Of a stretch of 64,000 nt of DNA, positions 17,722 through 40,500 are shown piece by piece. The first letter of the stretch is position 1. Each line of letters begins with the position of its first letter. Below the pieces are notes generated by a model that made no database searches, was not told where the DNA came from, and worked only from the letters and a program-made list of their open reading frames with translations. Made by a program: the position numbers and the translations under genes. Source of the stretch: a virus; the UHGV virus genome UHGV-1372779. One strand, given 5' to 3'.

Positions 17722-20700
17722 TTAACAAATATTATATTTACTTCTTATTTTATTTATATCTATAAGTGCAGATTTAACATTTTCATTACTTAGTATATTT
17801 AAAATATTAGAATCAATTCTTCCGTTGATTACTAAATCATTAATTAGTTTTAAATCACCAATATTTGATTCAATTAATTTAAAATTATCTGCTAATGTAG
17901 CTAAATCTATTGCACTTATTTCTGAAGCACTAAACATACTTCCGAAATTATTTTGTAAATATAATCTATTTTCATTACTTTTCCTAATATTATCTTCTAT
18001 ATTTTCAATTGGTTTAGGTTGAGTGAAGATAGTAAATTCTCCACCAACATATTTAATATGACTTACAATACTATCAGAACCATGACTTATATTTAATCCA
18101 GGAATAATACTATTTAATTGAGGAATGTATTTGGAAACCAAATTATCCACAAATGTCTTAATATTCACTGGTCCATCTACATTAGCTTCTATAGTAGGCA
18201 ACATACTAGGTATAATCTTGTCAAATTCAGATTTTACTACTGGATTAGATATTCTATCTGAAACCCAAGTAAGATAATCAAGAGCTTGCTTTACGTTCTT
18301 AGATTGAATTTGTGTTTTTTGTTCAGTTTCTGGCTTAATACTAGGCTCTGAATTGTTAATAGTTTGAGATTCTGGCTGAGAAACATCTTGAGGTTTTTCA
18401 ACTTTTTTATATCCAAATTCTTCAGGATTAGCTAAATCTCTAGAAGCAACAAATGCAAATTGTGGAGTTTGTAAATCTCTGTCTATATAATAAGATCCTT
18501 CAAGATTTACTGCTCTAATAAAATTCTTATCCCCAGTATGTCCCTGTTGATCCTTATCATACATCATTACTGGGAATGGGTAAATCCCTTCTTTAAATAT
18601 AGGATTATAATTAGGCATGTCTTTACCCTGAACTTTACCAGTTAATGCAGCCTCCATAAAATCAAATAAATTTTCAGAGGTTATGTCCTTATCTAAATTT
18701 AAGAAGAATGTTTCATTTTCTTTATTTTCAATAATATTTGAGGTATACTTGCCTTGCTCTTCTCTTATTTTATCATTTATTATTTCTCTAAAATATCTGA
18801 GAACATCATTACCATTAATTTTTTCTGCACTAGATTTATATTGATCTAATAGTTTAGAATCTAACTCTTGATGCATCCTTTCCATAATCCTCATGATGTG
18901 GAATTCTGTTGCATTTGGAGTTTTAATATTAGTAAGTTGCTGACTATTAGTACTAGCTAAGGCAGATAATCCAGAATATAATCTATCTGCGATTTTATAA
19001 AATTTATTTCCGGTTTGACCGTAAGCCTCTAACCAATTCTTATAATTTAATATAGATAATATTATATCAAATCCTGTATAATCCCCAAAATAAGACTTAT
19101 AGAATTTATTTCCTAATTTAGAAGCACTAGATTGTGAATAAGATTTTACATACTTATCATAGTTATTAAAGAACTCTCTAAAAGTTAAAGGATTAGGACT
19201 AAGAACAATCATTCTTATTTTATCCCTCATATCTGGATTGTTATCAAACTCTCCTGATGCTTGTCTAATGTAATAATCTCCATACTCACTTTCTGGAATT
19301 ACATTTCCATCTTCATCATAGATCTTTTCCGCATAGGTTGCAAAGACAATGGCTTTACCTTTTAGATTATATTTTTTGGTTTCATAAGTTAATTTTAATA
19401 ACTTATCTTGTAACTCTCTTCCTATTTTTGTTCTTTCAGTAAGATCCTCTGTAGAATTATATCTCTCTCTAGTTCTATTATAATCATTCTGAGCTTCTAT
19501 AATTCTATCACTGGCTTCTTGAATGTCAGAGTTTCTTTTAGTCTTATTACTATTATAATCTACAACAACATAAGGATTTGAGAAATATATTCCTTTAAAT
19601 TGTGTACCCCTATCTTCAAAATTATAATGTTTTCTTCCTTCTGGATCTTTCTTATAAATAACTAAATTGGTTATTTTTTCTAATTCAAAATCATCAGATA
19701 ATGGAATATATTCTGATGTATATAATTTAGAATAATCAGAAGGAACTCTATTCATAATTTCTGAATAGAATGGTTTATAAGAGGCAAACCATTTAGATTT
19801 TTCAAATTTAGCCTCATTTCCATTAGGAAGACTATATATAGATAATTCTATATTTTGTTGAGAAGTACTAGAATTTAAAATAGGTATAGTATAAACAACT
19901 CTTAACCTCTCTGATCTATTACTTCCATCTGAATGTATTTCCCCGTCGTAAAAATATTTAACTGCTTTAAGTTGGAATTTTCCATTTTTTAAATCTAATG
20001 ATCCAGTATTTCCGACTACATCTCTAAATGTATTATTAACATTAGATTCTATAAGATCTAATTCTTGATTTCTTCTTTCTTTAGATTTGAAACTATATAA
20101 TACACTCTTTATACTCTGAACCGTTCTATCGACCTTTTTAAAATTATCGGGGGATAATTTAGAATATGATCCATTAAAGAAGGCTGTATGATCAGAATCA
20201 TATAATCCAGAACTTGTTATATCAGATTTAATACTGTAAGATAAGATATTTCCATCTTTATCTTTTATTGGAAATTCTTTAATTCTATTATCATAAGAGT
20301 AAGCAATAAAACTATCTTCTGGATATTCTCTTACTTTGCTATCACTTCTATATAACTCTTCTGTAACTCTATTAGATTTTTCTTCGTCCTGATCAAATAC
20401 TTCATCTATTACTCTATCTAATGTTACATTTCCTGTTTTAGTATCACTTGTGGTAGTTTTAGATTTAGGTTCTTGGGGAGTAATAGTTTCAGGAGCTACA
20501 TAATTCTGTAATATAGATTCTAAAGATTTAAGTCTTAATTCAGAAAAAGATTTTGCAGATTCACTACTTAACACTGATTCTTGGGTATAATTTAATTTCT
20601 CTGAACCCTTTGTAAAGGTTTGTGAACTTAAATTATTATCTATTATAATAGTCCCATCTTTAGATCTAGTAATAGCTGTATATAAGTCTCTAATATTCTT

Positions 20701-23700
20701 TTCTATAAGAGCATCTTGCTTAAAATCTAAATGAAGATCTACTATAAAATATGGAGCTTCAAGACCCTGTACTTCGTTAAGTTTAAATATCTTAACTTTC
20801 TTATCATGAGTTCTATTGTATTCAGTGATAAGTTTATAGGTACTTGAATTGGTATCATCATATATATATCCTATATCTCCATTAGTGTTGGAATATAAAT
20901 TCTCAATCTCTTCAATAGAAGTAGAAGCAGCTAATTTTTCTCCGTTTAATATTCCATTTTCCTGATAATATTTTAGGGAAGGGATATTACCTAGAATTTG
21001 TCTGTGTAGTGGAACTAAATCATCAAAGGATAAATTATTATCTTTTGCATAAATTTGTTCATTAGCTGTTCTTAATGCATCTAAATTATCCTTCTTATGT
21101 ATATTAGAGACTCTTAATGAAGTTGATAATGTAGGGGTAGAAACTTTCAAAGCATCTACATCTATCCCCATATATAACCCATCTGATACTCTATGATACC
21201 CTGATTGAACTAAATCTCCGAATGTTAATAAAATCTTATTATTGATTCTTGCCCATTCAGAGAGTACTTCTAATTCAAATTTGGAGAAGTGAGTAACTTC
21301 ATCAATATAGATTATCCTTTGATCTTTAAAAGCATCATTATTGAAATTAGATTTACCTAAATATTTGTTCTTTAGTTTATAATTTTGATAATTATGCTCT
21401 TTAATATTTGTCCAATCTATATATTTACTATTATGTACTCCATTTTGGAAGTCATTGTTAGCTGAGGCTATTATTGAATAATCATTATATATATTGGTCA
21501 ATAATTCTTCTTTAGTAGAAGCAATATTACCTTGAGCATTAATTTCTCCATTAACAGTTGTTAGATCATCCTTATCACTAAAATTAGTTTCTAAAATTGC
21601 ATTAGTTAGATTTATAGCTTGTTGAGATTTAGGTCCAACTAATACAATTCTCTGATCACCTAGTAATTTATTAATTACCTTATTTGTAAGCCTTCCAACT
21701 CCATTGGTTTTCCCTACCCCAGGAGCACCATTATTGAATACTAAATTGTGATATGAGTCAGTATATTCTTTGTATACAGTTTTTAAGTGACCATCTCTAA
21801 TAGAGTTTAACTTATTTGAATCTACATATGTGATATTGTTCATAAAATCTGGATCTAATACCATTGCTACATTTATTCTAGTAGCATATTCTTGTGAAAA
21901 TATAGGTATTAAGAATTTTCCAGATTCTCTTTTAAATTCATCATCTATTATATCTTTAAGAGCTTTGCTATATTCAGAAGCCTTAATAGTAGATATAGTA
22001 TGATAGTATACAAATAACTCAGACGGGTCTAATTCCGATAAAGTTTCTGTTAGTGGGGAAGGATTATTATAATCACCTTTAACTAGCTTAGAATAATCAT
22101 ATCCTTGAAATAATCTTCCTATTAATTGTTGTTTAGTGAATTTATTAGAACTAGATAGAGAATTTACATTATCATATATTTTATCTTCTACCTTATTAAC
22201 TAAATCCTCTAGTTTAATAAAATCTTCATCAGATAAATCAGGTTTGAATAGTTCTTCTACATCATAATTATTTATAATATTGTCTACTTCCTCAAACATC
22301 TCTGGACATTTATTAGTAAAGTTCTTATCTAAGAAATTCTTTACTATAGCTTGTCTAGTTTTAATAGCTGTTAATTTATGTTCCCTTAATTTATTTCCTA
22401 CATTCTTTTCAGATAATTTTTTAAAGAAATTTAACTGATTCTGAACTCTAGTTAATTCATTAAGAACTTGAATAGCTATATTTTGATCAATTTCAGGAAG
22501 AATATCTGTAGAAGCTCCATCAACTTGATTTTGTTGTCTAAATCTATTTAAAGTAGTATTATATCCATATCCAGAACCATCTATATTAGTGGATCTAATA
22601 GTAGATGTTACTAATGATTTTAGTAAATCAATAGTTTGTATAGCATTAGTTAATTGCTCATTTCTGACTTTACCTTGAATAACATATTCTGAAAGTCTGG
22701 CTGCAGATTTAAGTTGAGCATTCTCATTCTCTAGAAGATCAAAAATATTAATTTGATTATCATCTCCTAATATTTCTACTTCTATTTTCTTTAATAAGTC
22801 TAGAATCGGATTATTTTTTAATTTATTCTCATTTATAAAAGAGTCAGATAATGTTACTAGTTCCTGAAGAGATGATTTAGAGTCGTAAACATTAGCATTA
22901 TTTAAAGCATTAACTAGAACCATTTTTCCCTGATCTGAGATACTGGAGGGAATAATTATATTAGATACTTCAAACCAATTTTTAGCTCCTTTTAACTCAT
23001 TTGTTACTCTAATTAGCTCATTTAAATCATTAAATCCATTATCTTCTAAAGCTTGTTCAGCAAATGATAGCATATCAGGAGTAAGACCTAGACTTTCAAA
23101 TCCCTCTGGAGTTAATTTATCAATAGTAATAACTTCCTCCACACTAGGATCTATCATTAAGGCTATAGATTTATTTAGTACAGAATCATTCAGACTAAAT
23201 GCGCTATCAGGTTTTATATAATCTAGAAGTTGTTTATATAAATCCTTAGTAAGTTCTACATTATCTGCCTTAGCATCCGCCAATAATTGTTTAGCACTAG
23301 CCATTTTCATAAGAGGAGATAGTTCATAATTATATTTGTTAACTACTTCTCTAATTCCTACTCTTATATTATTTAAATATTGAGAAAAATCCTCATTATA
23401 TCTAGCGGTTACTATATTGGTAAATAATTGTCTTAACTCTGGAGAAGATATTTTGTTAGAATAATCCAATAATCTATCTCTTATTAAATCTGAAGATTCT
23501 ATATTAGAATCTGGATTATTAGTATTTGTTTGAGCTTCTTCACGAATTTCTCTTAATACTTTCCCAAATTCTGTTTCTTGCCCATTTTGATCTATAGGAG
23601 CTAAATTGCTTAAGAAATCATCTATAAAAGTTTGATTAAGTTCAGAAAATTTAGTTTTAGACCCAACTAAGGATGCAGAATTTATTCCTATAGGAATTAA

Positions 23701-26615: not shown

Positions 26616-28508
26616 TTATTTGTTTAAACCAAATCTGTCTGATAAATCCAGTTGAGTAGGATTATCTAATGAACTTTGATTTCTTGCCATATTCATAAAT
26701 TCTAATCTATCTTTTGTAACTAATGGAGAATTTCCTCCAACAATAGACCTCATTATTATATCATCACTCATAGGTAAGAATAAAGAAGTTTTATATATAG
26801 CCTCATCTGGGAAGAATGGAATCCAAGTTGTGTCTGGAGCAAATGAAGATGTTCTTGTATCTTTATTAGATCCAGATGCTCTTACCTTAGCATATAGTTC
26901 TTGTACATCCTCTCTTTCTCTCTTTGGCAAAGCTTGTAAAAAGCTTTCTGCAGAAGTTTTCTCTACAACTGAATCTGGAACATAAGAAGGAATGACCATG
27001 AATTGAGTCATGAATTCTAATTGTTGAGAAGTAGGTAAATCCCCAGTTAAGATTAGATGAGATACATTATGTTTATCATATATCTTCTTTTTAGCTTCTT
27101 CAGATGGGTTATTTAATTGTTTAATTTCTTCATCAGCTAAACTTAATCTATTTAATGCATCTAAATCTACCACTTTAGATCCATTGGCATTTCTAATGAA
27201 CGGCATCCAAGCTGTTGCAACTTGATCATTAGAATATAATATCTTAGATAAATCTACATCTGATAAGGTTTCTCCAGTTCCTAGAGAAGCTCCATTAGGA
27301 TCTACTAATGCTCCTAGTCCTCCAGTAGAGATTATATCAGACATATAGTTATTATTTAATAACTTCTTATCAGCTCCAACTAAAGGAGATATATTTGCTT
27401 TAGTAGATAATGAATATTTACCTCCCAGTCTAACTGTATAATCCTTAGTTTTAGCTGCTCCTGCGTAGATTTCAAAAGGTCCTAATTCAGTTAATCCAGC
27501 ACTTCCAGAAGAAGATTTTCTGCCTGATCCATCAAGTACTCCTTCATCTTTAATAGATTGTTTTTCACTATGATAAGTTCCATATGTTAATAGATCAGCT
27601 AAAGCATTTAAAGCATTTTCTCTAGGATTTCCAGATTCATTTATAGCTGCTTGAGCTGTTAGAGTATTCTTTGCATGTTGAGGAAGTTTATTCCATATTC
27701 TTATCAGTGCTGTATTTAAATGATTTCTTTGAGTAGAAACTTCTGTTGTCATTTTATATAAATTATCATCTGGAGCTGTTCCTAATTTAGTGTTTATTAA
27801 TTTTTGAAGTTCATTATTAAACTCATTAGCTCTAGCTTTATTTATATATAAATCAGAAGAAGTATCTTCTTTTTGGATCATTTTAATAGCTGTATCTATT
27901 TCTTTATTTATATCGTTAATACTAAGACTTCCGGCCACAGTTTGAGATAAAGTTTTATCAAATAAAAATGCTTTGCTATTATTCCTTAATGTAAGAAGAT
28001 CATTATTAGTTAGTAAATGATATTGATCCTTATTCTCAGCATAGTCCATAGGATTAACTACAACCATTTTCCCTGACTTATCTTGTGCATATAAATTTCC
28101 ATCAAATGTGATAGCTGCTTCTGATAATGTTCCCTTATCCAAAGCTATTTTTCTAGCCTCATCATACATTTGTTTATTATTCTGTATTTCATTTAATCTA
28201 GCTACTAAATTAGTATATTGTCTAAGGGTCATTGGTTGACCTGTTAATTGTGAATCTGAAAATAGATCACCTACTTGTTGGGCAAAATAATTTACCTCAT
28301 TATTTAATCCCTTACCCGCCATACTCCCAATAACATCTTGAATCTGTTTTTGAGTAGCATCTATTTTAGTATCTCCACCTTTAGCACTTGCACTAGCCTG
28401 TGCTGATGTAGTTGGATCTGCTCCTATTTGTTGAAAAAAGGGGGTGTATCCCACCCACGGTGCTGATAGTTCACCCCCTTGTTGTAATTTTTGTATATTA
28501 AAGTTCAT
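26616..28508 (-). CDS. Putative internal virion protein of 630 aa with an N-terminal 'MNFNIQKLQQGG' leader.
   Basis: Long ORF, tightly packed against its neighbours. It shares the KLQxGG N-terminal motif with three neighbouring genes. Confidence 0.65.
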   Translation of the reverse strand: MNFNIQKLQQGGELSAPWVGYTPFFQQIGADPTTSAQASASAKGGDTKIDATQKQIQDVIGSMAGKGLNNEVNYFAQQVGDLFSDSQLTGQPMTLRQYTNLVARLNEIQNNKQMYDEARKIALDKGTLSEAAITFDGNLYAQDKSGKMVVVNPMDYAENKDQYHLLTNNDLLTLRNNSKAFLFDKTLSQTVAGSLSINDINKEIDTAIKMIQKEDTSSDLYINKARANEFNNELQKLINTKLGTAPDDNLYKMTTEVSTQRNHLNTALIRIWNKLPQHAKNTLTAQAAINESGNPRENALNALADLLTYGTYHSEKQSIKDEGVLDGSGRKSSSGSAGLTELGPFEIYAGAAKTKDYTVRLGGKYSLSTKANISPLVGADKKLLNNNYMSDIISTGGLGALVDPNGASLGTGETLSDVDLSKILYSNDQVATAWMPFIRNANGSKVVDLDALNRLSLADEEIKQLNNPSEEAKKKIYDKHNVSHLILTGDLPTSQQLEFMTQFMVIPSYVPDSVVEKTSAESFLQALPKREREDVQELYAKVRASGSNKDTRTSSFAPDTTWIPFFPDEAIYKTSLFLPMSDDIIMRSIVGGNSPLVTKDRLEFMNMARNQSSLDNPTQLDLSDRFGLNK

Positions 28509-28509
28509 A

Positions 28510-31500
28510 TTACCATATTTGTCTTAACATTCCTTTGGACTGTAGTAATTGATAACCAATATTTCTATTTAATCTACTTTGCTGAATAGCCATTAGATCA
28601 GACATTAATCTTTTCCTATCTTGTTCATAGGTAGGAGAGTTAAGATCTAAACTGTCTAATTCTTTTTGTAATCTAGCCTCATTCACATTTTCCTTTGCAA
28701 CTGTAGAGAAATCTTTTTTCTGAGTATTTAATAACTCTTGTTGAGTATTAAGTTGTTGTCTTTCTCCTGCTCTTTGCTTAATTTGTTCAGTTATATCATG
28801 TAAGAATACATCTGAATTCTGAGCATTTTGTGCTATTTTTTGAGCCTCTAGTTGTGCTTTTTGATTCTTCATATTAATTATAGAAGATCTATTTTGAGCT
28901 GCAACTTGTTCTCTTCTTGCTAAGTTATTAGCATTAACTTGGAAGGCTTTTTCTCTAGATTGCATTAAAGCTTGTTCATTAGCTAAATCTCCTTGGAGTC
29001 TAGCTTCAGAAGCAGCTTTATTCACAGCTAAATTATAAGCTAATTGTCTATCAGCATCAGAAGTCTGAGGAGTTCTAGTTAAATTTAATAAATTACCTGC
29101 TTGTCTATAATAAGAGTGTCTAACTCCTTCATTTCCCTGAATATTATAATTTATATCTTGAGGAGTATCTAATACAACAGGTTTTAATTTATTGTTTAAT
29201 AGATCAAATATCTTGTTATTAGCTCTATTTTTAGAATATAAAGAAATGATAGAAGATAAAGTACTTAATGGATAGCTAATATTAAAGTTTGGCTTATTTA
29301 ACTCTCCAACACTTGTTAATCCTGAACCATTAGTAGTCTTAGTAGAATAAGTAGTATTTGGAGTAATTCCTAAATTATTTCCTCCTAAAGCTTGTCTTTT
29401 TTGCTCTCTGCCTTGTTTAGCCAATTCACTTGTAATATAATCATCTCCGCTAACAGCTAATGTAACTCCAGGTTGAGAGGACATATTAAATGAAACAGGT
29501 CTCGCATTACCTTTCATGAACTCATATTTAGTATTGAGTCCAGGAAGAGAAGATAATCCTACCATATTTTTCTTAATATCATAAGCTCTATTATATTCTT
29601 TTGCAGACATTTGATTTAAGAAACTATTATCCACATCTTTATTTATGAAATCATCACCTGCAAGTAGTAGTGGTCCTCCATAAGCTAATTTAAGAACTCC
29701 ACCTAAACTTCTTCTTGCTATTCTTTCTCCCCTATCTTTAGATGTTTTTTTAGTTCCCTTAGCTTCTTTCTTAGAGACTTGTCTAGTTTTATTAGACTGT
29801 TTATCATATTCAACTTTTTGAGTAGCTTTCTGTGCTGCCTCTTTTTGTTGTTTATTGTAGTTTACTATATCCTGATACTCTTTTTGTCTAAACCTCTCTC
29901 TTTGTAGTCTTTCTCCAAGTTTTGCAGTTTCTTCTACATTCCTTCTTTCTTGATCAGCTTTTTCTTTTCTTTTAGCCTCCGCTTCCCTTTTACCCTTTTC
30001 TATATTATGAGCTTTTGCCTGTCTTTTTCTATCTTGTTCAGATATTCCACTAGCAAATTTGGCAGATTTTTGAGTTTTCTGTCTATTAGCTTCTGCCATA
30101 GTAGAGTATCTTCCTAAGTTTTCAGCCTCAGATTTATAAGGAGATTCTGAGGTTATTCTAACAGGTTTTATATCTTTTATAGATTTATATTGTATTTCTC
30201 CTACTCCTGCTGGGGCAGTGAAAGAATTTAATTGTCTAGATTCTGGAAGAGCTTCTATAATTTTTCCTTCTCCTAATTTGGGTCTATTTAGCACATTTTT
30301 ATCTACTTCTATAGTACCATAAGTATTAGGTTTAAGTTTTATGTACTTTTCCTCAGGAAGTGACACTTCTCCAGGCTTAGTAAACATTCTCTCTTCTAGT
30401 AATCCTTTCTTAAACCATCCATATTTATTATTAGCTAAATTTTCTACTACTTCTGGTTTAAGCTCTCTTCCTACTGTAGATTTATCTAGTTTAGCTTTAT
30501 TAGTTCCTATCCAAGATTTAGGAGATAATAATTCTTTCTTATTTAAATTAATAGTCCCTAACTCTTCATCGGATAGATTATATTGTTTTTTAAGTTTGTC
30601 TTTATAAAAAGCTAATTTTCCATTATTATCTAAACCATTAAATTTACCTATTTCTGATTCAGATAATGTTATAGTATAATTGTCTTTATTTGAAGAAACT
30701 GTGATTGGTTTAGATGAACCTTGTGTCTTTTGTGTAAAAGCTTGTTTAGCATAAGTTTGTCTTGCATTAGAGGCTAGTGGAGTTAATCCAGAAGCAAGCA
30801 TCCTCCAGTCTCCTATAGTCATTTCTTGTCCAGAAACTAATTTGGTCAACGCTGATCCAGCCTGAACGGCTCCTGCTGCTGTGAAATATTTTCTTAGTAA
30901 TGGAGCAACTCTTTTGGCAACTTTAGCCACTTTACTAGCTTTGGCAACACTTCCCAATCCTGGAATCAAGGTAGCAGCATCCATGCCTAAGTTCAATAAT
31001 GTGTTTCCTGCAATTCCCCAGCCAGACATATCACCTCTCTTAATATCAGCAGCTGTACTTAATGCAGTAGAACCAACTCCGGCAGTTGTTCCAACAACAT
31101 TTCCAACGCCAACAGCTGCAGTGGATACTAGACCAGTTACATCTAATGCAAGGGCAGCTAAATCTAATTTATCTGCATCAGATAAATCTCCAAAGCTGTC
31201 ATTGAATACATCTCCCATTGTAGCTGCGGTTTTCTCTCTAACATTATCTCCTAACATTATATTACCACCAGCCTGCAATTTAATAACTCCCCCATTTTTA
31301 TCCATTGCTACTGATCCTAGCCCACCTGTTGGTCTATTACCTCTAGTGACTTGTGCTAATGTAGTAGCTTGAGGTTTTATTGCTCCTTCAGTGCCTTTTA
31401 ATCCTCTTTGTATTAATTCTTGAAGAGTGACACTAACTGGATATTTAGATTGAGATGTTCCACTTCTTAATATAGTTTGATTACCTTGTTCATCAGTAAA

Positions 31501-33042
31501 TACTTGCATACCTGCATCATTATATGATAAAGTTCCTTTTCTAGGATTACCATTAGAATCTACCATAAATACATATTTAGTAGGTTGAAAAATACTCCCA
31601 CTAGAAGTATCATAGTTTTTATCATATATAGCAAATAAAGCATTATTATTTCTAACATCATCAGAATCTATAGAAGAAGTTAGATCTTCTATTTTTCCCT
31701 CAAAGTTATCAACAAATAATCCTGGGAATTTTTTATTTAAATAGTTTAGTACATGATAGTTACCAGCTCCAGTTCTAACTCCAATAGATTGAAGACCTTC
31801 AAAGTTAGTTTTATGTTTATTTAAAGTATCAAAAAATACATTTCTAAACTCTGAATCTGTGTTAGATAACTGTCTTGCAGCATTAGTGTCTCCTACATAC
31901 ACACCCCTATTATAAAACCCAGTTTTGTAATATCCAGTTGGATTAGCTTTTTTACCATAAGGTTCTAACCATAAATATCCACTAAATAAGTTACCTGAAG
32001 AATCTCTTAATCCTTCTTTACTTTGGGTATATGTTTCACCTCCTAAATTTAAAGATAATGGAGTATTTTCGGGTATTTTTAACTCAGATCTTAGTTGATT
32101 TTCTTGAGTTATTCTTTCCTGTTCTGGAGATAAGGGATTGGGACTAACAGGTTGTTGTCTATTATTTCCACTACCAAATATATAATCTGCCCAGAAATCA
32201 CCAAATTTTCTATTTCTTAGTTGTTCAGAGAAGCTCCAAGTGGATTTATTTTTATCAAATATTCTATTCCCATTTGCATCTAATTTATACTGACCATTAG
32301 CATCTTTTTCGTATAGATCATCATCTAAAGATTCTAGATCATTAACAAATTGATCATATTCTTCTAAAGATCCAAATGGTAATTCTCCTGCAACATTAAA
32401 TGCAGATTTATCAGTAAAATATTCAGCAAATCTATTTCTATTTTCTTTTAAAGTCTTTGCAACATCACTAGTTCTCTGTCTTTCAGTCATGTTGTTATAT
32501 GTATCTTGTCTAAATTTGTTTCCCCAGATTGTGCTTAACAACATATTCTTAGGATTATAATCTAAATTGATTTTTTCAGGAGAGCTTACAGAAGTATCTA
32601 TTGTAGATAAATTTAGTAAGTTTCTCTTTATTGCATTAGTTAAATAGTCACTACTATACTTATCAGAAGGATCAAAACTTCCGGCGGTTTGATTATTATA
32701 TTTAATATCAAATCCTCCTTTTGAGTTTAGATCAATAGATTGTATATCTCCTTGATCAATCATATTCAAGAATCTTTTGTAATCAGAATCTACATTTTTT
32801 CCTCTTTTTCTATAAGAAGAAACTAATCCTCTAGCATCATCTGTTCCTTGCCAGTTGATTAATTTTTCTTTAGCTTCAGACTTAGAATACTTCTTACCAT
32901 TTATAGTAATGGAATTAGTATCAGCTTCAAGTTGCTTTTTTCTTTTCTTCTCTTCTAATTTGGCCTTCTGATTATTATATTCTTGTAAGTTTTTAGGAGT
33001 TACTTTTCCTCCGTCTTGAAGTTTTTTTATAACTTGTGACAT
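28510..33042 (-). CDS. Large protein of about 1510 aa whose true start is MSQVIKKLQDGG. It is Gly/Ala-rich and coiled-coil-rich, suggesting a tape-measure or ejection-like protein.
   Basis: The 14-codon N-terminal extension in the ORF track overlaps a terminator hairpin. The internal Met yields the same KLQDGG leader as the neighbouring genes. There is an internal 'IKLQAGG' and a highly charged K/E/R/Q-rich segment. Confidence 0.65.
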   Translation of the reverse strand: MSQVIKKLQDGGKVTPKNLQEYNNQKAKLEEKKRKKQLEADTNSITINGKKYSKSEAKEKLINWQGTDDARGLVSSYRKRGKNVDSDYKRFLNMIDQGDIQSIDLNSKGGFDIKYNNQTAGSFDPSDKYSSDYLTNAIKRNLLNLSTIDTSVSSPEKINLDYNPKNMLLSTIWGNKFRQDTYNNMTERQRTSDVAKTLKENRNRFAEYFTDKSAFNVAGELPFGSLEEYDQFVNDLESLDDDLYEKDANGQYKLDANGNRIFDKNKSTWSFSEQLRNRKFGDFWADYIFGSGNNRQQPVSPNPLSPEQERITQENQLRSELKIPENTPLSLNLGGETYTQSKEGLRDSSGNLFSGYLWLEPYGKKANPTGYYKTGFYNRGVYVGDTNAARQLSNTDSEFRNVFFDTLNKHKTNFEGLQSIGVRTGAGNYHVLNYLNKKFPGLFVDNFEGKIEDLTSSIDSDDVRNNNALFAIYDKNYDTSSGSIFQPTKYVFMVDSNGNPRKGTLSYNDAGMQVFTDEQGNQTILRSGTSQSKYPVSVTLQELIQRGLKGTEGAIKPQATTLAQVTRGNRPTGGLGSVAMDKNGGVIKLQAGGNIMLGDNVREKTAATMGDVFNDSFGDLSDADKLDLAALALDVTGLVSTAAVGVGNVVGTTAGVGSTALSTAADIKRGDMSGWGIAGNTLLNLGMDAATLIPGLGSVAKASKVAKVAKRVAPLLRKYFTAAGAVQAGSALTKLVSGQEMTIGDWRMLASGLTPLASNARQTYAKQAFTQKTQGSSKPITVSSNKDNYTITLSESEIGKFNGLDNNGKLAFYKDKLKKQYNLSDEELGTINLNKKELLSPKSWIGTNKAKLDKSTVGRELKPEVVENLANNKYGWFKKGLLEERMFTKPGEVSLPEEKYIKLKPNTYGTIEVDKNVLNRPKLGEGKIIEALPESRQLNSFTAPAGVGEIQYKSIKDIKPVRITSESPYKSEAENLGRYSTMAEANRQKTQKSAKFASGISEQDRKRQAKAHNIEKGKREAEAKRKEKADQERRNVEETAKLGERLQRERFRQKEYQDIVNYNKQQKEAAQKATQKVEYDKQSNKTRQVSKKEAKGTKKTSKDRGERIARRSLGGVLKLAYGGPLLLAGDDFINKDVDNSFLNQMSAKEYNRAYDIKKNMVGLSSLPGLNTKYEFMKGNARPVSFNMSSQPGVTLAVSGDDYITSELAKQGREQKRQALGGNNLGITPNTTYSTKTTNGSGLTSVGELNKPNFNISYPLSTLSSIISLYSKNRANNKIFDLLNNKLKPVVLDTPQDINYNIQGNEGVRHSYYRQAGNLLNLTRTPQTSDADRQLAYNLAVNKAASEARLQGDLANEQALMQSREKAFQVNANNLARREQVAAQNRSSIINMKNQKAQLEAQKIAQNAQNSDVFLHDITEQIKQRAGERQQLNTQQELLNTQKKDFSTVAKENVNEARLQKELDSLDLNSPTYEQDRKRLMSDLMAIQQSRLNRNIGYQLLQSKGMLRQIW

Positions 33043-33051
33043 AAAAATTAA

Positions 33052-33082
33052 AATAAAAAAGGAGCATTTCTCAATGCTCCCC
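33052..33082 (-). terminator. Rho-independent terminator following the 102-aa gene.
   Basis: On the minus strand: ggagcatt-gaga-aatgctcc, a perfect 8-bp stem, followed by TTTTTTATTTT. Confidence 0.6.
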
Positions 33083-33096
33083 ATCTTTATAGATTT

Positions 33097-33405
33097 TTAA
33101 AGTCTCTTACTTACTACCAATTTACCTCCCCTTTTTGCCATTACAGGTTCCGCAGGAACAGGTTCTTGTCCTCCATTCATTTGTTGTTGTGCTGTGTTAA
33201 CTAAAGCTGCACAAACCTGTAGTGCTAATTGACCATCGTTAGCTTGAAGTGCTTGAATTGCAGCTTCGATGATCATTGCCACAGGATCTTGTCCTCCTTC
33301 ACCTTGTGCTGCGGGAGCTGCAGTTGGCTCAGGTGCAGGCGTAGGTTCAGCAGACATCTGACCACCATCCTGTAGTTTCTTTATTAAATTCTCACTTATT
33401 TTCAT
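33097..33405 (-). CDS. Small Ala/Pro/Gln/Gly-rich protein of 102 aa with a 'KLQDGG' leader. Its GC content is unusually high for this genome and it has its own promoter-like region and terminator.
   Basis: ORF bounded by an AT-rich upstream region and a strong terminator. Its codon GC is visibly higher than in the flanking genes. Confidence 0.6.
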   Translation of the reverse strand: MKISENLIKKLQDGGQMSAEPTPAPEPTAAPAAQGEGGQDPVAMIIEAAIQALQANDGQLALQVCAALVNTAQQQMNGGQEPVPAEPVMAKRGGKLVVSKRL

Positions 33406-33467
33406 AATATTAATTTTTAATTTTTAATTTTAAATTTTAATTACAAACTCTTAATCTTGAATTATTT

Positions 33468-33475
33468 ACAAAAAT
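33468..33475 (-). promoter_or_regulatory. Bacteroidota-type -7 promoter motif (TAttTTTG) upstream of the 102-aa gene.
   Basis: Matches TAnnTTTG on the minus strand about 65 nt upstream of the ATG, within a 210-bp AT-rich divergent intergenic region that also contains an 8-bp inverted repeat (cttgtaaa/tttacaag). Confidence 0.25.
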
Positions 33476-33615
33476 AAAACTTTTTAACCTTGTTTCCTAG
33501 CAACCTTGTAAAATTTTAATTTACAAGATGTTGCGTTATATTATCTAATTTCTTGATCTCTGTGATATAGCTTTTATGGATTTATATATCTAAGAGAGGT
33601 ATCTGCTTATTTTTC

Positions 33616-34038
33616 ATGATTCATATTATTTCAATTGTTGTTATTTCATTATATTTGCTGTTATTAATTTTAAATTTATTCATTATGTCTATTATATCTG
33701 TTGATCCCTTCATGATAAAAGGAAAATCTGAGAATGTTTATCAATTTGTAACTTACCCTCTTGATGCCGAATTTCCAGAAAGTTCTGGTGTATATATTTA
33801 TGCAAAATGTCATGATTCAGATGATTGTTTACTTATTTATTGTGGGAAATCCAATAATTTAAAAAATAGAATAAACAGTCATAAAGATCCAAAAGATAAA
33901 ATAAATGCTCATAATCCTAACTACATATTTATTTACTATACGAACACAAAAGAACAAGCATTAAATATTGAGACAGACATTCTAGCTAATAATAGTTTTC
34001 TTGAGAATCATCAACTTCAGAACAATAAACAGGAATAG
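33616..34038 (+). CDS. Freestanding GIY-YIG homing-endonuclease-like gene (catalytic domain only). It is the only plus-strand gene in the window.
   Basis: 'SGVYIYAKC...LIYCGKSNNLKNRINSH' matches the GIY...YIG...R...H pattern. The annotated hydrophobic N-terminus may be spurious, with the real start near 'MIKGKSE'. Confidence 0.6.
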   Translation: MIHIISIVVISLYLLLLILNLFIMSIISVDPFMIKGKSENVYQFVTYPLDAEFPESSGVYIYAKCHDSDDCLLIYCGKSNNLKNRINSHKDPKDKINAHNPNYIFIYYTNTKEQALNIETDILANNSFLENHQLQNNKQE

Positions 34039-34387
34039 TTTCAGTTATTCCTGTATCTGGATTTTTAATAACTTTATAATGGTGGATAACTTTACTTCTC
34101 CATTCTGGATCTTCATATTTCTTTTTTAATAATTCAATTCTCCATCTATCTGGGCAATCTAGTGATTGTAGTGCTTCATGTGCCTCATGAGAAATATATT
34201 TATTAGGGCGAAAAACGCCATCTTTATTTAGTGATAGTAGTATATAACAAGAATCATCTGTTATAATTGCATTTGTGCTGCCAAGTTCTCCTTCAAATAC
34301 TATAACCGGAGTATCTTCTATTATGCGACCACCTTCTTCATCAAAACTCATTTTGATTTTTCCTGTATGTTCTATTTGTTTAATCAT
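33986..34387 (-). CDS. Hypothetical protein of 133 aa.
   Basis: ORF only. Its 3' end overlaps the plus-strand GIY-YIG gene convergently. Confidence 0.4.
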   Translation of the reverse strand: MIKQIEHTGKIKMSFDEEGGRIIEDTPVIVFEGELGSTNAIITDDSCYILLSLNKDGVFRPNKYISHEAHEALQSLDCPDRWRIELLKKKYEDPEWRSKVIHHYKVIKNPDTGITETIPVYCSEVDDSQENYY

Positions 34388-34406
34388 AATTCATGTTCAT
34401 TTTAAG

Positions 34407-34727
34407 TTATTCACATATATATTCTTTTTCTACACTTTCATATAAGGGAGATTTTAATGCCATTTTAATTAGTTTATCAATCTCTGTTTTCATGTATAAT
34501 ATATCTTCTTTTGTCTTAACTTCCAGACATGTAAATCTGAATTGTTCTTTTTCGAACTCATCAAAATTAAGTCCTTTATCTAAAGATTTTTTCATATCAA
34601 TTAATTCACATATTAAATCCTCATATCCAAAATGTTCTGCAAGTCTTAAACATGTATTAATCATTCTATAAAGTAATTGACTTTTGGGATATATGATATA
34701 ATCTTCTTGATCCTTATTTATTATCAT
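34407..34727 (-). CDS. Hypothetical protein of 106 aa.
   Basis: ORF only. Confidence 0.4.
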   Translation of the reverse strand: MIINKDQEDYIIYPKSQLLYRMINTCLRLAEHFGYEDLICELIDMKKSLDKGLNFDEFEKEQFRFTCLEVKTKEDILYMKTEIDKLIKMALKSPLYESVEKEYICE

Positions 34728-36198
34728 TGTTAAAATTATTTAAAATGGTTAATCCTCCTACTGATGGTAATAATTTTATAACTTCTACCGCTTTAGGAAT
34801 GTTTATATCAGAGTTAAAATGCCTGTTTCCATATTGTTCAATGAATTTATAGGCTTCTTCATCAGTTAAATCTCTTGTTCCAATTTTATTTTCTTCCCTA
34901 AATCTCCATAGATTAGAATGTAATTCTTTGGGAAGCTTACTCCAATCTGAACCCTGATATAATAGCTCTTTTAAATCCTTTGATATAGACATTGAAGGAT
35001 TAATATTAGCAAAATCATCATTTAAATTTATATTAAATAAGTTTTGCATCATATGAGTACCTTCATGTGCTGCGGTTCCTTTTATGTCTTTTAATGTTCT
35101 TAATTTGCCATTTTTATATCTGTTGATTCCGATAATATCATAATCATCTACTGGTGTGTACACTCCATTTGTTGAAGTTGTATTTAATATAAAGGAAGTG
35201 CCATTATCAGCATTGTTAAATCTAGAATTATTCTTTACTGTTGACAATTTTGCAGGAACACTTTTAGAATATCTTTTATTATCATTTAAAAATATTTTTA
35301 ATGTGTTCCATCTATTTAAATCTCCAGATATTGCTCCCATTGGAGGAAATGTATTTTCACTGTACTCACCTAATCCTATTTTAGTTCCTCTGTTTTTTAT
35401 ATTTTCATTTAAAATTAGCTTTTGAGTATTAAAGAAAGGCTGAGAATTATCTAATTTCTCACTTCCATTGAAATTCTTAAGAATAGCTTTTACTCCCTTT
35501 AGCGCACTTCTATCTTGTAATTTAAAGTATCCATTTCTTAATAATGGAACTTTATCTACAACATCATTTAAAATATCTATTTGTGGAATATTTCTAGTCA
35601 CACCACTACTAGCACCAGCAAACATTCCCGGAGAAACCATATTAGCACCAAATCTTAAAACAGGATTCTTTACATCTAAAGCCTCACCTAATTGTGCAGG
35701 TTTGCCAGTAATAGCTTCATATCCTGTATCTATTGCCATACCACCTAATGCACTTCTGCCTAAAGCTCCAAGTGCTTGATTAACACCATTACTTCCAATA
35801 ACTCCATTTGTAATTCTACCAAAATTATTAGAAGCATTTAAGGAGTTAGTAATAACTGGATTAGATAAATATGATCCTATTGAAGGTGCTATTGATGCTG
35901 TAGCTCCTATAGCAAATGGAGCTATCATCATTCCTCCTAAAATCGGAGCCATTTGTTTACCAGTTTCATTAGTTGAATTAATTACTTTTCTACCAAATCT
36001 TTCTCCTTTGTCATAGTTAGAAGGCCTTACTGTTACCTCCTCTAATGGTGAAGATTCAAATGTATCATCTAATATTTGTTTTACTATTTCTCCTTTTGGA
36101 GCAATGGATTTATATGTATCTTTATATTCCTTAGAAGTATATTTCCCTTCTTTTAGGAGTTTTGACAATTTATTTATTTTCTCAAAATCTAAAGCCAT
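34714..36198 (-). CDS. Gly/Ala-rich protein of 494 aa with a zincin HExxH motif ('AAHEGTHMMQ') and an N-terminus of MALDFEKI.
   Basis: HEGTH is read from the translation. A long G/A/I-rich segment precedes it. Confidence 0.65.
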   Translation of the reverse strand: MALDFEKINKLSKLLKEGKYTSKEYKDTYKSIAPKGEIVKQILDDTFESSPLEEVTVRPSNYDKGERFGRKVINSTNETGKQMAPILGGMMIAPFAIGATASIAPSIGSYLSNPVITNSLNASNNFGRITNGVIGSNGVNQALGALGRSALGGMAIDTGYEAITGKPAQLGEALDVKNPVLRFGANMVSPGMFAGASSGVTRNIPQIDILNDVVDKVPLLRNGYFKLQDRSALKGVKAILKNFNGSEKLDNSQPFFNTQKLILNENIKNRGTKIGLGEYSENTFPPMGAISGDLNRWNTLKIFLNDNKRYSKSVPAKLSTVKNNSRFNNADNGTSFILNTTSTNGVYTPVDDYDIIGINRYKNGKLRTLKDIKGTAAHEGTHMMQNLFNINLNDDFANINPSMSISKDLKELLYQGSDWSKLPKELHSNLWRFREENKIGTRDLTDEEAYKFIEQYGNRHFNSDINIPKAVEVIKLLPSVGGLTILNNFNNDNK

Positions 36199-36233
36199 AT
36201 TATCCTCTATGATTTAGGATTTTTCAATTATTA

Positions 36234-36241
36234 CAAATTTA
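36234..36241 (-). promoter_or_regulatory. Bacteroidota-type -7 motif (TAaaTTTG) upstream of the 494-aa gene.
   Basis: Matches TAnnTTTG 36-43 nt upstream of the ATG at 36198, in the 107-bp intergenic gap. Confidence 0.25.
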
Positions 36242-36305
36242 ACATATATTCTCATAATTTCCAATATGTTATATATTATTTAGAATGAATATAAATAATT
36301 TTATT

Positions 36306-37514
36306 TTACTCTACAGTACTAATAAATTCACCTTCATCCTTAGTATTATATAATATCTCTCTAACTAATAACTTCCCAGCCTCAATTGCAGCCTCATCAG
36401 TACCTTCTTTAAATAACTCTTCTAATCTTTCAGTCACCTTTGGTCTGAATATAATCTCATTCTTCTCAATCTCAGCTGCTTGTTTAGTGGAACCTCCTTT
36501 TTCCATTAGGACAGGGATTCCTTTGTTAGTGACTACTCCTTCAACATTGATGTTGTGTTTTCTGGCGTGTAATGCTCCGATTGGTAGGAGGTTTACATCG
36601 TTTTCTTTGTCTTTTAGATATTTTCTGTAATGAGTGATGAATTTGGCTCCTTTTTTCCCAAATGTTATATAACTATTACCTCCTAATATTCCGGACTGCT
36701 GAAGTTGTTTTCTATTATTAAACATATCAGTAGATGATGCTTGAATAGCTCTTTGGTCACTTGCTTCTCCTAGAATATCCTGTATTCCAGATTGCCAGAC
36801 CTTAGCTTGCCCAATTTTTTTATTAGCTTTCTTTCTAGCTCTGTTAGAAAGTAATCCATATTTTTTATTAGAATATTGCCCAGCCTTTTGAATATCTGCA
36901 CCTGTTCCTGTATAAGATGAATTACTTACAGCATTTTGGTCAATATCTATTGTATCTGTTTTCTTTCCAAATGCATTATTTACTAGTCCTAAGGCTCCTA
37001 AATTAAAAAAAGAGCTTCCTAGTATTGCATCAGTAGTAGTCATTTTATCTGTTCCAATTCCTACTTTTTCTAAAGCACTTCCTGCTAATTTACCAGCCTT
37101 CATTATTCCTCCTACAACCATTCCTGCAGGGCCAAAAGACATTGCTACATTAGAAATTGTATCATAAGCAGAATCAAGCCCTTGAGTTAGATTACCTTTT
37201 TTACCTGAATAATTTTTTTGGAAGACTTTAAAATTGGATAACATATCTAATCCAGCTCCTATAGCTCCCATAGGATTTGCACCTCCACCTGTTGCTCCAG
37301 TTGTTTCAGCAACTGAAGTAGTAGAGGTATTAATCCCTAATACGGAATTACCAAGATTTCTGAGTCTATCTCCTAAGGTAAAGTTAGGTTTAATAGAATT
37401 TAAACTTGCTCCTTGAGCAGCCATAGCATTTAAAGTTAAGGCTGGAGTTGTTGCTGTGAGTTGGGGATCTGTAAGAACCCCTCCCCACTGTAATTTAAAT
37501 ATTATATGTTTCAT
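36306..37514 (-). CDS. Gly-rich protein of 402 aa with an N-terminal 'MKHIIFKLQWGG' leader.
   Basis: Shares the KLQxGG motif. There are Gly-rich hydrophobic stretches (GATGGGANPMGAIGAG..). Confidence 0.65.
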   Translation of the reverse strand: MKHIIFKLQWGGVLTDPQLTATTPALTLNAMAAQGASLNSIKPNFTLGDRLRNLGNSVLGINTSTTSVAETTGATGGGANPMGAIGAGLDMLSNFKVFQKNYSGKKGNLTQGLDSAYDTISNVAMSFGPAGMVVGGIMKAGKLAGSALEKVGIGTDKMTTTDAILGSSFFNLGALGLVNNAFGKKTDTIDIDQNAVSNSSYTGTGADIQKAGQYSNKKYGLLSNRARKKANKKIGQAKVWQSGIQDILGEASDQRAIQASSTDMFNNRKQLQQSGILGGNSYITFGKKGAKFITHYRKYLKDKENDVNLLPIGALHARKHNINVEGVVTNKGIPVLMEKGGSTKQAAEIEKNEIIFRPKVTERLEELFKEGTDEAAIEAGKLLVREILYNTKDEGEFISTVE

Positions 37515-40500
37515 TAGTTATAACTTGGTGTATATATAGTTTGTATTGCTGTTATAATTGGCTTATTTTTACCATCATATTTAAATCTCACTCTCATAAA
37601 TTTATCCCTAGGTCTAATTTCCATGAATGGAAGATCTTCTACTGTTACATCTTCTCCATTTTCATAAGTTCTTCTATGAGCTCTCATAGGATCGATTTCT
37701 AAGTAGAATAAGTCTTCTTTATATACAGAATTTCCTAAGATATTTCCCCAAACCTTAATATCCCTAACATCCATGCTCTTTCTCATAGTATATTGGTTTA
37801 ATTTTCTATCTTTAAAGAATTCTGCATTTAATTGATCTAAATATAAAGGTTCTCCAGTATCATCATCATATTGAAGTTTTCCTTTTTTATAATATAATTT
37901 TGGATCGAAGGTTATAATATATTCTGGAACAAATTCTCCATCCTCTTCTTCTTTACCTAATGAAGAAGTGCTAAAATTAGGATCTGATTGATATTTATAA
38001 GAATTTTCTTTACAATTACTAAAAGCATAGGCATCTCCTATTACATCATAGAGAATCTCTACAGGAGGAACATTATTAGATAATATTTGAAAGTTGTCAA
38101 ATATTTTATGTCTGGCTCCTTCTTTATTAACTATAAATTCTAGTTCGAATGGATATTGTCTATCATACCACACACAGTTTTTAATCTCTGTTTGGTTGTC
38201 AATTATTCCTGCCACTCCATGTTTCCAGAAGTATGTAAGTTCATGAGGTTCTTGGAGTTCTGGTATATTATTTAAATAAGATAATCTAATAGTTAAAGTA
38301 TCTCTAAATACTTGTCCTGATACTTCTTTATCTTTATCCACTCCTTCTCTATTTATTTCTACCTCAATATCTAGAGTAGCATAATATTTTCCTTCCAAAA
38401 CATATTTTTTATAGGTATTTTCTGATTGTTTAAACACTATTCTACTTTCTTTGTCAGAAATAGCTTCTATATAAAAATCGTCATTATCATTAGTTTGTCC
38501 TTCATCAGGTTCAATAAATTTATATTTTAAAGATCTAACTTCATTTATATCAATAGAATCTAGCTTAAGACTTAATTCTCCAATTCCTATATCTTTAGTA
38601 TCAGAACTTAACTTAGGAAACTCAACTCCGGGATAAACTACTTCTCTTAGATAATTAGAACTGTATTTATCCCCAGAATTATCATAGCAATTTGATAAAA
38701 CAATTCCCCTCGAAGTGTAGCTATCACTCCAACAAGAGGAAACAGATGATATATTTTTAGCAGAGTCTTTATCATAACTAAAATAAATATTATTAATATT
38801 CTCAGATAATAAAGGAATCCAAGAATATCTGGTTGTCCACAAATTTAATTTTTCATTAAAGCATATATTCCATCCTATTGAATTAATATCATTTCCTAAA
38901 TTATCAGTAGATTTAATATCATCATAGAATGTAAACATTATATCATATTTAAATGCGTTATAATGAGATTTAACATTTCTTATTCCTAACAACGGAAGTA
39001 TTTCCTTTTCAGTTAAAGTTATATTATCATTTAAATAAGATTGTATTTTAAAGTCAGAAATGGTTTCAAAAGATCTTCCATCTGTTCTCCAAATTCTCTT
39101 CCCTACTGTATCTACTCCATATACAAATCTTTCTGATTTAACTATAGAGTCCTTCCATTGTGATCCAAATGTCTTAGACAACATTGTAGGTCTTTCTGGT
39201 AATACTTTATTAGAGTTAATAAAAACCTCTTCTTTATTTTGCCCTTCTCCTAATGGAACTTTTTCATTAACTGGTAATATTCCTACTCCATGTTCAAATA
39301 CTACCAATAAATTGCTATACCATTCTAATATATCAGTTATGGCTCCAAATTCTTTGTTATAATCACTATAATTATTTAATCTAAATATTCTATAAGAATT
39401 TTTAAAGGCATCGGTAGTATATATATCTGAATATATTATTCTATTAGATAGCTCATTTTTTATATAAGGAACATCGGGGAGGATAAAGTTATTCTTCTCA
39501 GAAACTGTGGAGTTAAATCCTGCATTAAATAAAGTAGAGTCAGGAATTTTATAAGATCCATCAGATTGAAATCCATTTATAGGAGCAAAAGTTCTAGGAT
39601 GGCCTACTAACCCCATCTCTGATCCATTAGAGTCATCTTCTACTCTAAGAGATAAATTTATATTGCTCATACATTTAAAGGTTACCCAGTGTCCTATATT
39701 TACAGCATTAACATCTCCTCTATTTATCTCAGCACATTCTTCTAAATCTAAAGCTCCATTTTCAAATCCTGAGTAATGATCTTTCCATGTATTTTGGTTT
39801 ATAAAATCACTGTTAATGGGAGCTTCTGGATCTTGAAAATTCCTACACATTCTATGAGTAAAGTTTCCAATGAAACAATCTCCTCTATAGCAGACAATAA
39901 AATCATCTACAAATCCATATTCTGTTCTATCACATATAGGATAAAAGGGATCGGTTATATTACCTCTTATCTTAAAATAATCCTTTAAAGAATTTTCATT
40001 ATAACCATATGTAAGCACATTGAATATACTTAAAGGATCATTATATCCTTCTATTCCTACATAAGGCCCCCATTCTCCTCTTAATAAATTAGTAGCACTC
40101 TTATTAGGATTTTCTGATTTTAAGTAAGATACTCTATAAGCTTCTTCAGCAGCACCTGCTCTAGAAGAGAATTCCATAGTTCCAGAAGAAGAAAGTTGTA
40201 CACTATCTCCAACATAGGTTAAAGTAGATGTAGTTAAATATTCTGAAGTATTACTAGTATATCCATTTACATAATAGTGCCTAGAATTTTCAAACGAAGG
40301 TTCTAAAACATCGTTCTCTGGCTTAATAGGAGCAGCTACAACTTCATAAGGTATGGCAGAAAATAATTGTGAATATAATTCAGAGTTTAATTCTGCTTCC
40401 GGAATTATTGCAGCATTTATGCCGCAGGAGTCAATAGTTCTTAATCTGTCCTCAAATTCATGATCTAGTACTCTTTCATTAGTTAAAAATGATTCCGTTA

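Follow-up and report, generated by a model that had tools for sequence, protein, structure and literature searches.

In phage T4, a leader of ~10 residues, the capsid-targeting sequence, is shared by unrelated injected proteins (IPI-III and Alt), is needed for their incorporation, and is removed by the prohead protease gp21. Adenain acts on (M/I/L)-x-G-G-x sites, cut after G-G, and pS273R of African swine fever virus (ASFV) acts on Gly-Gly-X sites, in core proteins and polyproteins. The classical double-glycine leader is 15-30 aa long and follows the pattern L-S-x-x-E-L-x-x-I-x-G-G, with hydrophobic residues at positions -4, -7, and -12 and Glu at -8. Among the viruses of the human gut, crassviruses are the most abundant, and here we describe a short motif, K-L-Q-x-G-G, at the start of four genes of one of them. 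The sequence analyzed is a 64,000-nucleotide stretch of the UHGV virus genome UHGV-1372779, hereafter the window, which is crassvirus DNA.

The best-described crassvirus in this respect is ΦcrAss001, in which the proteins C1 (gp45) and C2 (gp46) are encoded after the muzzle gene and are followed by three giant RNA-polymerase-associated proteins (Bayfield et al. 2023). All of these proteins are packed in the virion, and their ejection into the host is thought likely; the published picture of gp45 is that of a single chain threaded ~420 Å through the portal. Neither a motif of the kind described here nor any processing appears in that paper. How the megadaltons of crassvirus cargo proteins are loaded, arranged, and released is regarded as unresolved both in a review of 2023 and in a paper of 2026 on the ejection proteins of N4, and the review treats the mechanisms of crassvirus capsid assembly and packaging as unestablished and names no protease.

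In the window, the motif opens four minus-strand genes whose products measure 402, 102, 1510, and 630 aa. Its eight-residue form is I-x-K-L/F/Y-Q-x-G-G, its fuller consensus is [VI]-I-x-K-[LFYM]-Q-x-G-G, and its loose form is Phi-x-x-GG, where Phi stands for a hydrophobic residue. The genes, the motif copies, and the hairpin that bears on one of the gene starts are as follows.

36306-37514, minus strand: gene for the 402-aa protein, the first after the muzzle gene; Gly/Ala-rich hydrophobic stretches; N-terminus MKHIIFKLQWGG
37479-37496, minus strand: motif copy KLQWGG of the 402-aa protein
33097-33405, minus strand: gene for the 102-aa protein; N-terminus MKISENLIKKLQDGG
33361-33378, minus strand: motif copy KLQDGG of the 102-aa protein
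33059-33082, minus strand: terminator-like element (10-bp hairpin, then a T-run) that separates the 102-aa gene from the start of the 1510-aa gene
28510-33042, minus strand: gene for the 1510-aa protein, termed C1-like; N-terminus MSQVIKKLQDGG
33007-33024, minus strand: motif copy KLQDGG at the N-terminus of the 1510-aa protein
31264-31284, minus strand: internal copy IKLQAGG of the 1510-aa protein, residues 589-595, in the context GGVIKLQAGG
29674-29694, minus strand: second internal copy LKLAYGG of the 1510-aa protein, residues 1119-1125, in the context GGVLKLAYGG
26616-28508, minus strand: gene for the 630-aa protein, termed C2-like; N-terminus MNFNIQKLQQGG
28473-28490, minus strand: motif copy KLQQGG of the 630-aa protein

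The four N-terminal copies were pointed out in a sequence-only reading of the window and stand as quoted there. That reading called the genes consecutive, which holds for the 102-, 1510-, and 630-aa genes; the 402-aa gene lies apart from them, beyond a variable region (33406-36305) in which three minus-strand open reading frames (ORFs; 494, 106, and 133 aa) are accompanied by a GIY-YIG ORF on the plus strand (33616-34038). Its correction of the start of the ~1510-aa protein is borne out: the hairpin and T-run separate an upstream in-frame ATG (33084) from the ATG at 33042, and distant orthologues begin at M-x-Q-V-x-K itself, so we place the start at ATG 33042. The internal IKLQAGG that it reported is also present, and the second internal copy, LKLAYGG, had been missed.

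Chance does not account for this pattern. Apart from the four N-termini and the internal copy of the 1510-aa protein, the six-frame translation of the window holds no other stop-free K-L-Q-x-G-G site. Given the amino-acid composition of the window, 7e-4 N-terminal sites are expected in 25 proteins, compared with 4 observed (P(>=4) ~1e-14), and no more than 1 was seen in any of 2000 shuffles. The codons for Leu, Gln, and Gly vary between the copies, which points to selection on the protein and not to a DNA repeat. Outside the motif, the four proteins show no mutual similarity. In the 102-aa protein, the motif leads into a linker rich in Ala, Pro, and Glu; a helical segment follows, and the C-terminus is basic.

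We then assessed how far the motif is kept in relatives. Orthologues of the 630-aa protein retain K-[LF]-Q-[QE]-G-G down to 50% identity. A family-wide profile search with this protein against 1.8 billion representatives yielded 863 clusters at 50% identity, with members ~20% identical; since the search scored the whole 630-residue profile, it was not driven by the motif. Phi-x-x-G-G occurs within 30 residues of the start in 121 of the 138 unfused representatives, and the remainder are mostly near variants or truncated gene calls. In an alignment of 121 sequences (~20% identity to the window protein), the only invariant columns are M1, G11, R175, and P436, while G12 is at least 90% conserved. 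G11, one of these four invariant positions, is the first Gly of the motif. Counting positions back from G-G as in a protease site, 127 family members have I at P8 in 75 cases, K at P6 in 80, L/Y/F/M at P5 in 105, and Q at P4 in 101, followed by Q/S/E/A/D and then G and G, with P1' variable. The leader is typically 9-12 residues long in this family and 12-15 residues long in the window.

The other carriers behave similarly. All 15 distinct N-termini of 102-aa orthologues contain Phi-x-x-GG, and orthologues of the 402-aa protein begin with MKKFQEGG, MKKFYDGG, MDINTLKLQWGG, or MHNIKKYQ(TGA=W)GG. Loci with a ~25%-identical member of the 630-aa family were found partly through the motif of that protein, an ascertainment bias that concerns this family only and leaves the neighboring genes unbiased; in these loci, the motif is carried by the syntenic 402-like proteins, by the small proteins, and by the large C1-like proteins. 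More specifically, the syntenic small proteins have KYQEGG or KFQQGG followed by an A/P-rich stretch, and the C1-like proteins begin with KLQKGG or KYQTGG. The same pattern is found in MT835470, an unannotated GenBank record. Among 176 distinct N-termini in related loci that BLAST assigned to none of the four families, every strict match is a cargo-block protein situated between the muzzle gene and the giant ORF, i.e., an orthologue of the small protein, a C1-like orthologue, or a member of a fifth motif-bearing family (270 aa, in ~160-kb relatives). Collectively, these data show that the motif is specific to cargo genes and under extreme conservation; its absence from orthologues would have spoken against the sequence-only reading.

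In some of the relatives, TGA codons complicate gene calling. In L030, L035, L041, and L043 (loci of relatives, numbered with L throughout), TGA codons of the late module are read as sense, apparently as Trp, and translation table 4 joins their fragmented ORFs into the expected genes. The MHNIKKYQ-TGA-GG found there corresponds to KLQWGG of the window.

The motif is found within proteins as well as at their starts. Fusion proteins (12 representatives, ~1150-1275 aa) have a perfect motif at the junction in 12 of 12 cases, as in ...HPKRKLQYGGQAPFMVYTP and ...SKKAPKFQQGGGMPPFTIYTP, and several of them also bear the motif at their own N-terminus. It follows from the internal copies at the junctions that a free N-terminus is not required. 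The N-terminal half of the fusions corresponds by homology to the last third of the C1-like protein, a module that occurs elsewhere as the N-terminal part of a separate ORF starting at the motif. In the L053 orthologue, the alignment with the fusions starts at residue ~807 and the internal motif GNIIKYQGGG lies at residue 810; gene fission and fusion therefore take place at motif sites. Internal copies in the C1-like family share GG-[VI]-[IL]-K-Phi-Q-x-GG and lie at ~0.4 and ~0.75 of the relative length. Orthologues have GGILKFQEGG, GIPIKYQEGG, GGIIKLQYGG, and similar sequences at the first site, and GGVLRLAYGG and GGVIKYQDGG at the second. The 1510-aa protein is therefore best seen as three modules (~1-588, 596-1118, and 1126-1510), each led by a motif, with the 630-aa protein as a fourth module after them, and the motif marks the boundaries of cargo modules.

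Structure prediction places the motif in a flexible region. The AlphaFold2 model of the 630-aa protein, built from a deep alignment, has a mean predicted local distance difference test score (pLDDT) of 85, and in residues 1-47, which are predicted to be disordered, the score is below 50 and no secondary structure is seen. A top-conserved position inside a flexible tail is the signature of a short linear motif that is read by another molecule.

The assignment of the window to the crassviruses rests on Pfam hits for the muzzle, Ring_1, Ring_2, and capsid proteins, all of which exceed the curated cut-offs. These genes and the first giant ORF beyond the motif genes are located as follows.

37514-42184, minus strand: crassvirus muzzle protein (Pfam crAss_MUZ, 86.4 bits; crAss_MUZ_C, 28.3 bits, with a cut-off of 27)
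46834-47523: tail ring protein 1 (Pfam)
47677-48393: tail ring protein 2 (Pfam)
51688-52578: part of the crassvirus capsid protein (Pfam)
17722-26610, minus strand: giant ORF of 2962 aa downstream of the 630-aa gene, lacking the motif, as do its orthologues

The motif genes are followed by giant ORFs of 2962, 2138, 1008, and 1395 aa, and the gene order agrees with ΦcrAss001 gp43-gp50. As is the case for crassvirus cargo genes, they sit between the muzzle gene and giant genes of the RNA-polymerase-associated type. It is on account of this position, which matches that of the ΦcrAss001 cargo genes, that we named the 1510-aa protein C1-like and the 630-aa protein C2-like. Based on gene position, the four carriers are most likely cargo proteins that are held inside the particle and injected into the host, in agreement with the sequence-only reading, in which they were taken to be virion proteins of the internal or ejected kind. 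Phages of this clade are uncultured.

Similarity searches place the carriers in no described family. Neither BLAST nor hidden Markov models (HMMs) detected sequence similarity between the window cargo proteins and ΦcrAss001 gp45 or gp46, and an HMM of the 630-aa family showed no homology to gp46. In a BLAST search of the window proteins against ΦcrAss001 gp44-gp50 and the proteins of p-crAssphage and phi14:2, only the muzzle and ring proteins matched. PHROGs and Pfam assigned no family to the four carriers, the PDB yielded no match by sequence or by fold, and Foldseek with the AlphaFold model of the 630-aa protein returned only weak hits, to uncharacterized crAss-like phage proteins and a phi14:2 structural protein. 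Megablast and tblastn searches of a phage collection retrieved no close relatives; only MT835470 was found, via another gene. In addition, full-text searches of the literature found no paper describing this motif or the processing of crassvirus cargo proteins.

It is very probable that the motif is a functional signal of cargo modules, by whichever mechanism it works. As to the mechanism, we tentatively favor, at a little short of an even chance, a short linear signal that is used in assembly and, in addition, as a site of cleavage during maturation. Lying in a flexible segment, the motif would be read by a component of the assembling particle, and this would direct or order the incorporation of the cargo proteins. 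A maturation protease would then most likely cut at the motif, so that stand-alone proteins would lose a leader of 9-15 residues and the modules of the 1510-aa protein and of the fusions would be separated in a polyprotein-like manner. Cutting might occur after G-G, in the style of adenovirus and ASFV, or after Phi-Q, as in 3C-like proteases or, after Glu, in T4 gp21; in a few orthologues, Glu replaces Gln (KFETGG), a variant that recalls the gp21 preference. The role in assembly, the cut itself, its position, and the protease are all inferred. Cleavage is favored because the specificity lies wholly N-terminal to the invariant G-G and P1' is free, because the core is short and the motif is kept at every fusion junction, and because there are precedents in the capsid-targeting sequences of T4 and in the Gly-Gly-X maturation of adenovirus and ASFV. 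What the sequence-only reading had proposed, a shared signal for packaging or processing, remains the best account of the motif.

The T4 system resembles this one in that a short N-terminal sequence is shared by four unrelated proteins in cargo position (and by a fifth family in relatives). This part of the likeness drawn in the sequence-only reading holds, whereas consensus and machinery differ. T4 sites follow (L/I)-x-E, while here the sequence is Phi-Q-x-G-G and, in a few orthologues, Phi-E-x-G-G; the gp21-type protease is known in T4, while the prohead protease family was not detected here in the ORFs scanned; and, unlike in T4, the motif also lies at internal module boundaries, the cleavage is a proposed one, and the virus is a podovirus-like crassvirus. 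The likeness to adenovirus and ASFV sites lies in a consensus containing Gly-Gly that recurs at internal boundaries, as well as at the N-termini, of internal virion proteins whose modules recall a polyprotein. In adenain sites, however, P4 is the hydrophobic position, whereas here P5 is hydrophobic and P4 is Gln; the scanned ORFs include no clan-CE cysteine protease, and the host is bacterial. Since consensus and machinery differ, we would place the motif in neither the T4 nor the adenovirus/ASFV system, although it would work like them.

ΦcrAss001 gp45 and gp46 occupy the same position after the muzzle gene and are Gly-rich with a membrane-type segment. F-x-x-G-G occurs in gp45 at residues 17-21, 260-264, and 559-563, the latter two lying just after the tail-barrel segment (214-245) and the portal-bound segment (425-552). 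In contrast to the window proteins, gp46 has no leader, and gp45 is rich in GG throughout; its matches may therefore be compositional and serve only as a lead. If gp45 were cut after residues 21, 264, and 563, its tail-resident and portal-bound parts would be separate polypeptides. The diagnostic peptide masses that we computed for gp45 are 2816.27 and 2985.44 (uncleaved) and 1786.81 (cleaved); the portion of the published ΦcrAss001 matrix-assisted laser desorption/ionization (MALDI) peak lists that the analysis covered contained no gp45 peptides.

Several observations weigh against cleavage or against a general role of the motif. Pfam scans of 28 window ORFs and 20 late-region ORFs of MT835470 found no C39, clan-CE, or prohead-type protease; the sole protease hit in the late region of MT835470 was Peptidase_S74 on a fiber protein. 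The G-G varies to GS, SG, GT, or GN in some orthologues (KLQTGS, KFQTSG, KYANGN), which speaks against a strict G-G protease because a hinge would tolerate such variants more easily. Many distant ~600-aa relatives of the 402-aa protein lack the N-terminal motif and have internal KYQKGG and EFKEGG instead. Phi14:2 lacks the motif, ΦcrAss001 gp45 matches it only loosely, with F-x-x-G-G look-alikes in a generally GG-rich sequence, and the ΦcrAss001 papers mention no processing. The giant ORFs of the RNA polymerase (RNAP) block, sited where ΦcrAss001 encodes its virion-packaged RNA-polymerase proteins, are also without it, so it is not a universal packaging signal. In addition, the hydrophobic spacing of the longer leaders (-13, -9, -8, -5) fits an amphipathic docking helix as well.

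Indeed, an uncleaved docking or anchoring peptide is a serious possibility and nearly as likely as cleavage. In the form of a helix or of an added beta-strand, the GG-flanked segment would bind to the portal, the tail-barrel rings, the muzzle, or the scaffold, at a site common to the carriers; it would stay attached, position each cargo module, and set the order of ejection. A scaffold-like protein of 370 aa is encoded at 54204-55316 of the window. In favor of this are the predicted disorder of the segment, which would fold upon binding, its isolation as an independent unit by GG on both sides of the internal copies, the amphipathic pattern of the longer leaders, the tolerance of GS, SG, and GN, and the lack of a matching protease among the scanned ORFs. 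ΦcrAss001 itself offers parallels: fiber residues 1-26 dock N-terminally, in hubs, the muzzle bears six copies of an unassigned 14-residue helical cargo segment, and segments of gp45 are bound to the portal and the tail barrel. Yet a single tag would suffice to carry a fusion along, and all 12 fusions keep a perfect internal copy, several of them with an N-terminal one in addition. At the junctions, Pro and Lys precede the motif (HPKKLQQGG); with Pro at P8, the recognized core would shrink to some six residues (K-Phi-Q-x-G-G), which do not suffice for an amphipathic helix and better fit extended binding in a protease cleft. The confinement of specificity to the N-terminal side of the invariant G-G, with P1' free, likewise has the look of a protease site more than of a docking peptide. 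It would be less probable by far that the motif acts after ejection, for example by making a trans-envelope channel oligomerize, by inserting into a membrane, or by letting each ejected module bind a host factor. The carriers are indeed the proteins thought to form the ejection channel, and the giants of the RNAP block lack the motif; but nothing specific favors such a role, the motif is hydrophilic and basic and not membrane-active, and such a role predicts neither its strict position at the starts of modules nor that junctions retain it.

The sequence-only reading had also likened the motif to double-glycine leaders, a comparison that does not hold. A bacteriocin-type leader, removed by a C39 peptidase or an exporter of the peptidase-containing ATP-binding cassette (ABC) transporter (PCAT) type, would account for a short leader ending in Gly-Gly, but here I stands at -8, K at -6, L/Y/F/M at -5, and Q at -4, so that hydrophobic register and residues are unlike LSxxELxxIxGG, and the leader is only 9-15 aa long. 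The substrates are virion structural-module proteins of 102-1510 aa with internal copies of the motif, not small exported peptides, and the same Pfam scans gave neither a C39 nor an ABC hit. To judge from its consensus, machinery, and substrates, the motif is not a bacteriocin double-glycine leader, and we give this origin hardly any probability. Just as improbable is a relic without a function in the protein, either of common ancestry (paralogous N-termini) or of a nucleotide-level element such as a translation-initiation signal. Neighboring genes could stem from duplication, but synonymous codons differ between the copies, the carriers are dissimilar outside the motif, the motif is kept at ~20% overall identity, with its first G in one of four invariant columns, and it persists at internal positions that have no translation start. 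We also considered a prepilin-type leader and rejected it since the hydrophobic helix and the Glu at +5 after Gly are both missing.

If the motif is cut, which protease might do so? Contrary to the sequence-only reading, which saw no protease in the window, two ORFs with HExxH are present, any connection of either with the motif being conjectural.

2913-7100, minus strand: ORF of 1395 aa that closes the cargo block and has HExxH at 6600-6614 and 3411-3425
34714-36198, minus strand: accessory ORF of 494 aa with HEGTH (35053-35067), a gene that most relatives lack

Across 17 orthologues, with identities as low as 46%, neither HExxH site of the first ORF varies, and a conserved segment containing Glu comes after each of the two. 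Its product is a candidate virion-packaged metalloprotease, and a connection with the motif may be envisaged. The 494-aa ORF was considered and set aside as the protease of the motif: it is conserved in only one close relative, so it is not a general partner. Its single-sequence AlphaFold model was unusable (pLDDT 35). Drobysheva et al. discussed a zincin-type domain in the packaged gp65 of phi14:2 and suggested that fused giant proteins are cleaved, and p-crAssphage gp45, annotated as a zincin-protease fusion, has the N-terminus MDVLKFLQGG. A further step, namely, that the motif is cut by a virion-packaged protease in a polyprotein-like ejectosome, which would then be the first maturation-processing system described in Crassvirales, is in our view possible but less likely than not.

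Two further observations concern proteins with HExxH. The ORF at 2913-7100 begins with IKYKVGG, which was examined as a fifth instance of the motif; it is not kept in the 17 orthologues and is hence a chance look-alike. In phi14:2 (L058), the virion protein g070 (20360-22141, minus strand), encoded just after the muzzle gene, contains two tandem HExxH units, each preceded by GG-x-VDPP-[TS]-K.

A portable and extremely conserved tag offers an experimental handle on the cargo modules, through mutation, transplantation, determination of processed N-termini, and partner pull-down. It also makes it possible to annotate cargo genes, and the boundaries of their modules, by a simple sequence rule across hundreds of lineages of uncultured phages. 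Should the motif prove to act as a signal for packaging, foreign proteins could be loaded into crassvirus particles by means of it.

The surroundings of the motif genes show additional features. The gap that separates the 402- and 102-aa genes in the window contains, in relatives, genes for DUF192, a GH108 lysozyme, a helix-turn-helix (HTH) protein, and the motif-bearing 270-aa protein. A DUF192 (PF02643) gene lies between the 402-like and small-protein genes in most relatives (L005, 1446-2126; L030, 4112-4687; L061, reverse strand, 17976-18542) but not in the window; its product has a C-terminal extension (..GGERIFSR..) similar to the end of the 402-aa protein. A literature search on DUF192 as a lead returned nothing relevant. 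The C-terminal part of the 402-aa protein itself (36306-36600, minus strand) contains a strongly conserved block, IPxGALHA(R/H)KHN...KGIPV, with no function assigned; it is common to more than 2000 database proteins, including the ~600-aa relatives.

Another motif, G-x-x-P-x-N-x-QGGD-x-LRD-x-VVK-[LI]-N, is shared by the N-termini of a 106-aa ORF of the window (60125-60445, minus strand) and of two tail-fiber-type proteins of L059 (681-7373, 2230 aa; 7403-9679, 758 aa); it is probably a common fiber-docking segment. A reverse transcriptase of the diversity-generating retroelement type (60795-61808, minus strand; PHROG 1423, E 3e-126) adjoins the tail-fiber genes.

Homing endonucleases interrupt two further regions. 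A LAGLIDADG homing endonuclease (10281-10982, minus strand) lies between the giant RNAP-block ORFs 11312-17728 and 7093-10119, with the same layout in MT835470, and these two ORFs may represent exons that belong to one gene. In the major capsid protein gene (Pfam Crass_capsid; 51688-54172, minus strand), a homing-endonuclease ORF (52661-53386) separates a part of 195 aa from one of 296 aa. Since a contig with an identical reverse transcriptase carries an intact 483-aa capsid gene, the split looks like an intron-type insertion.

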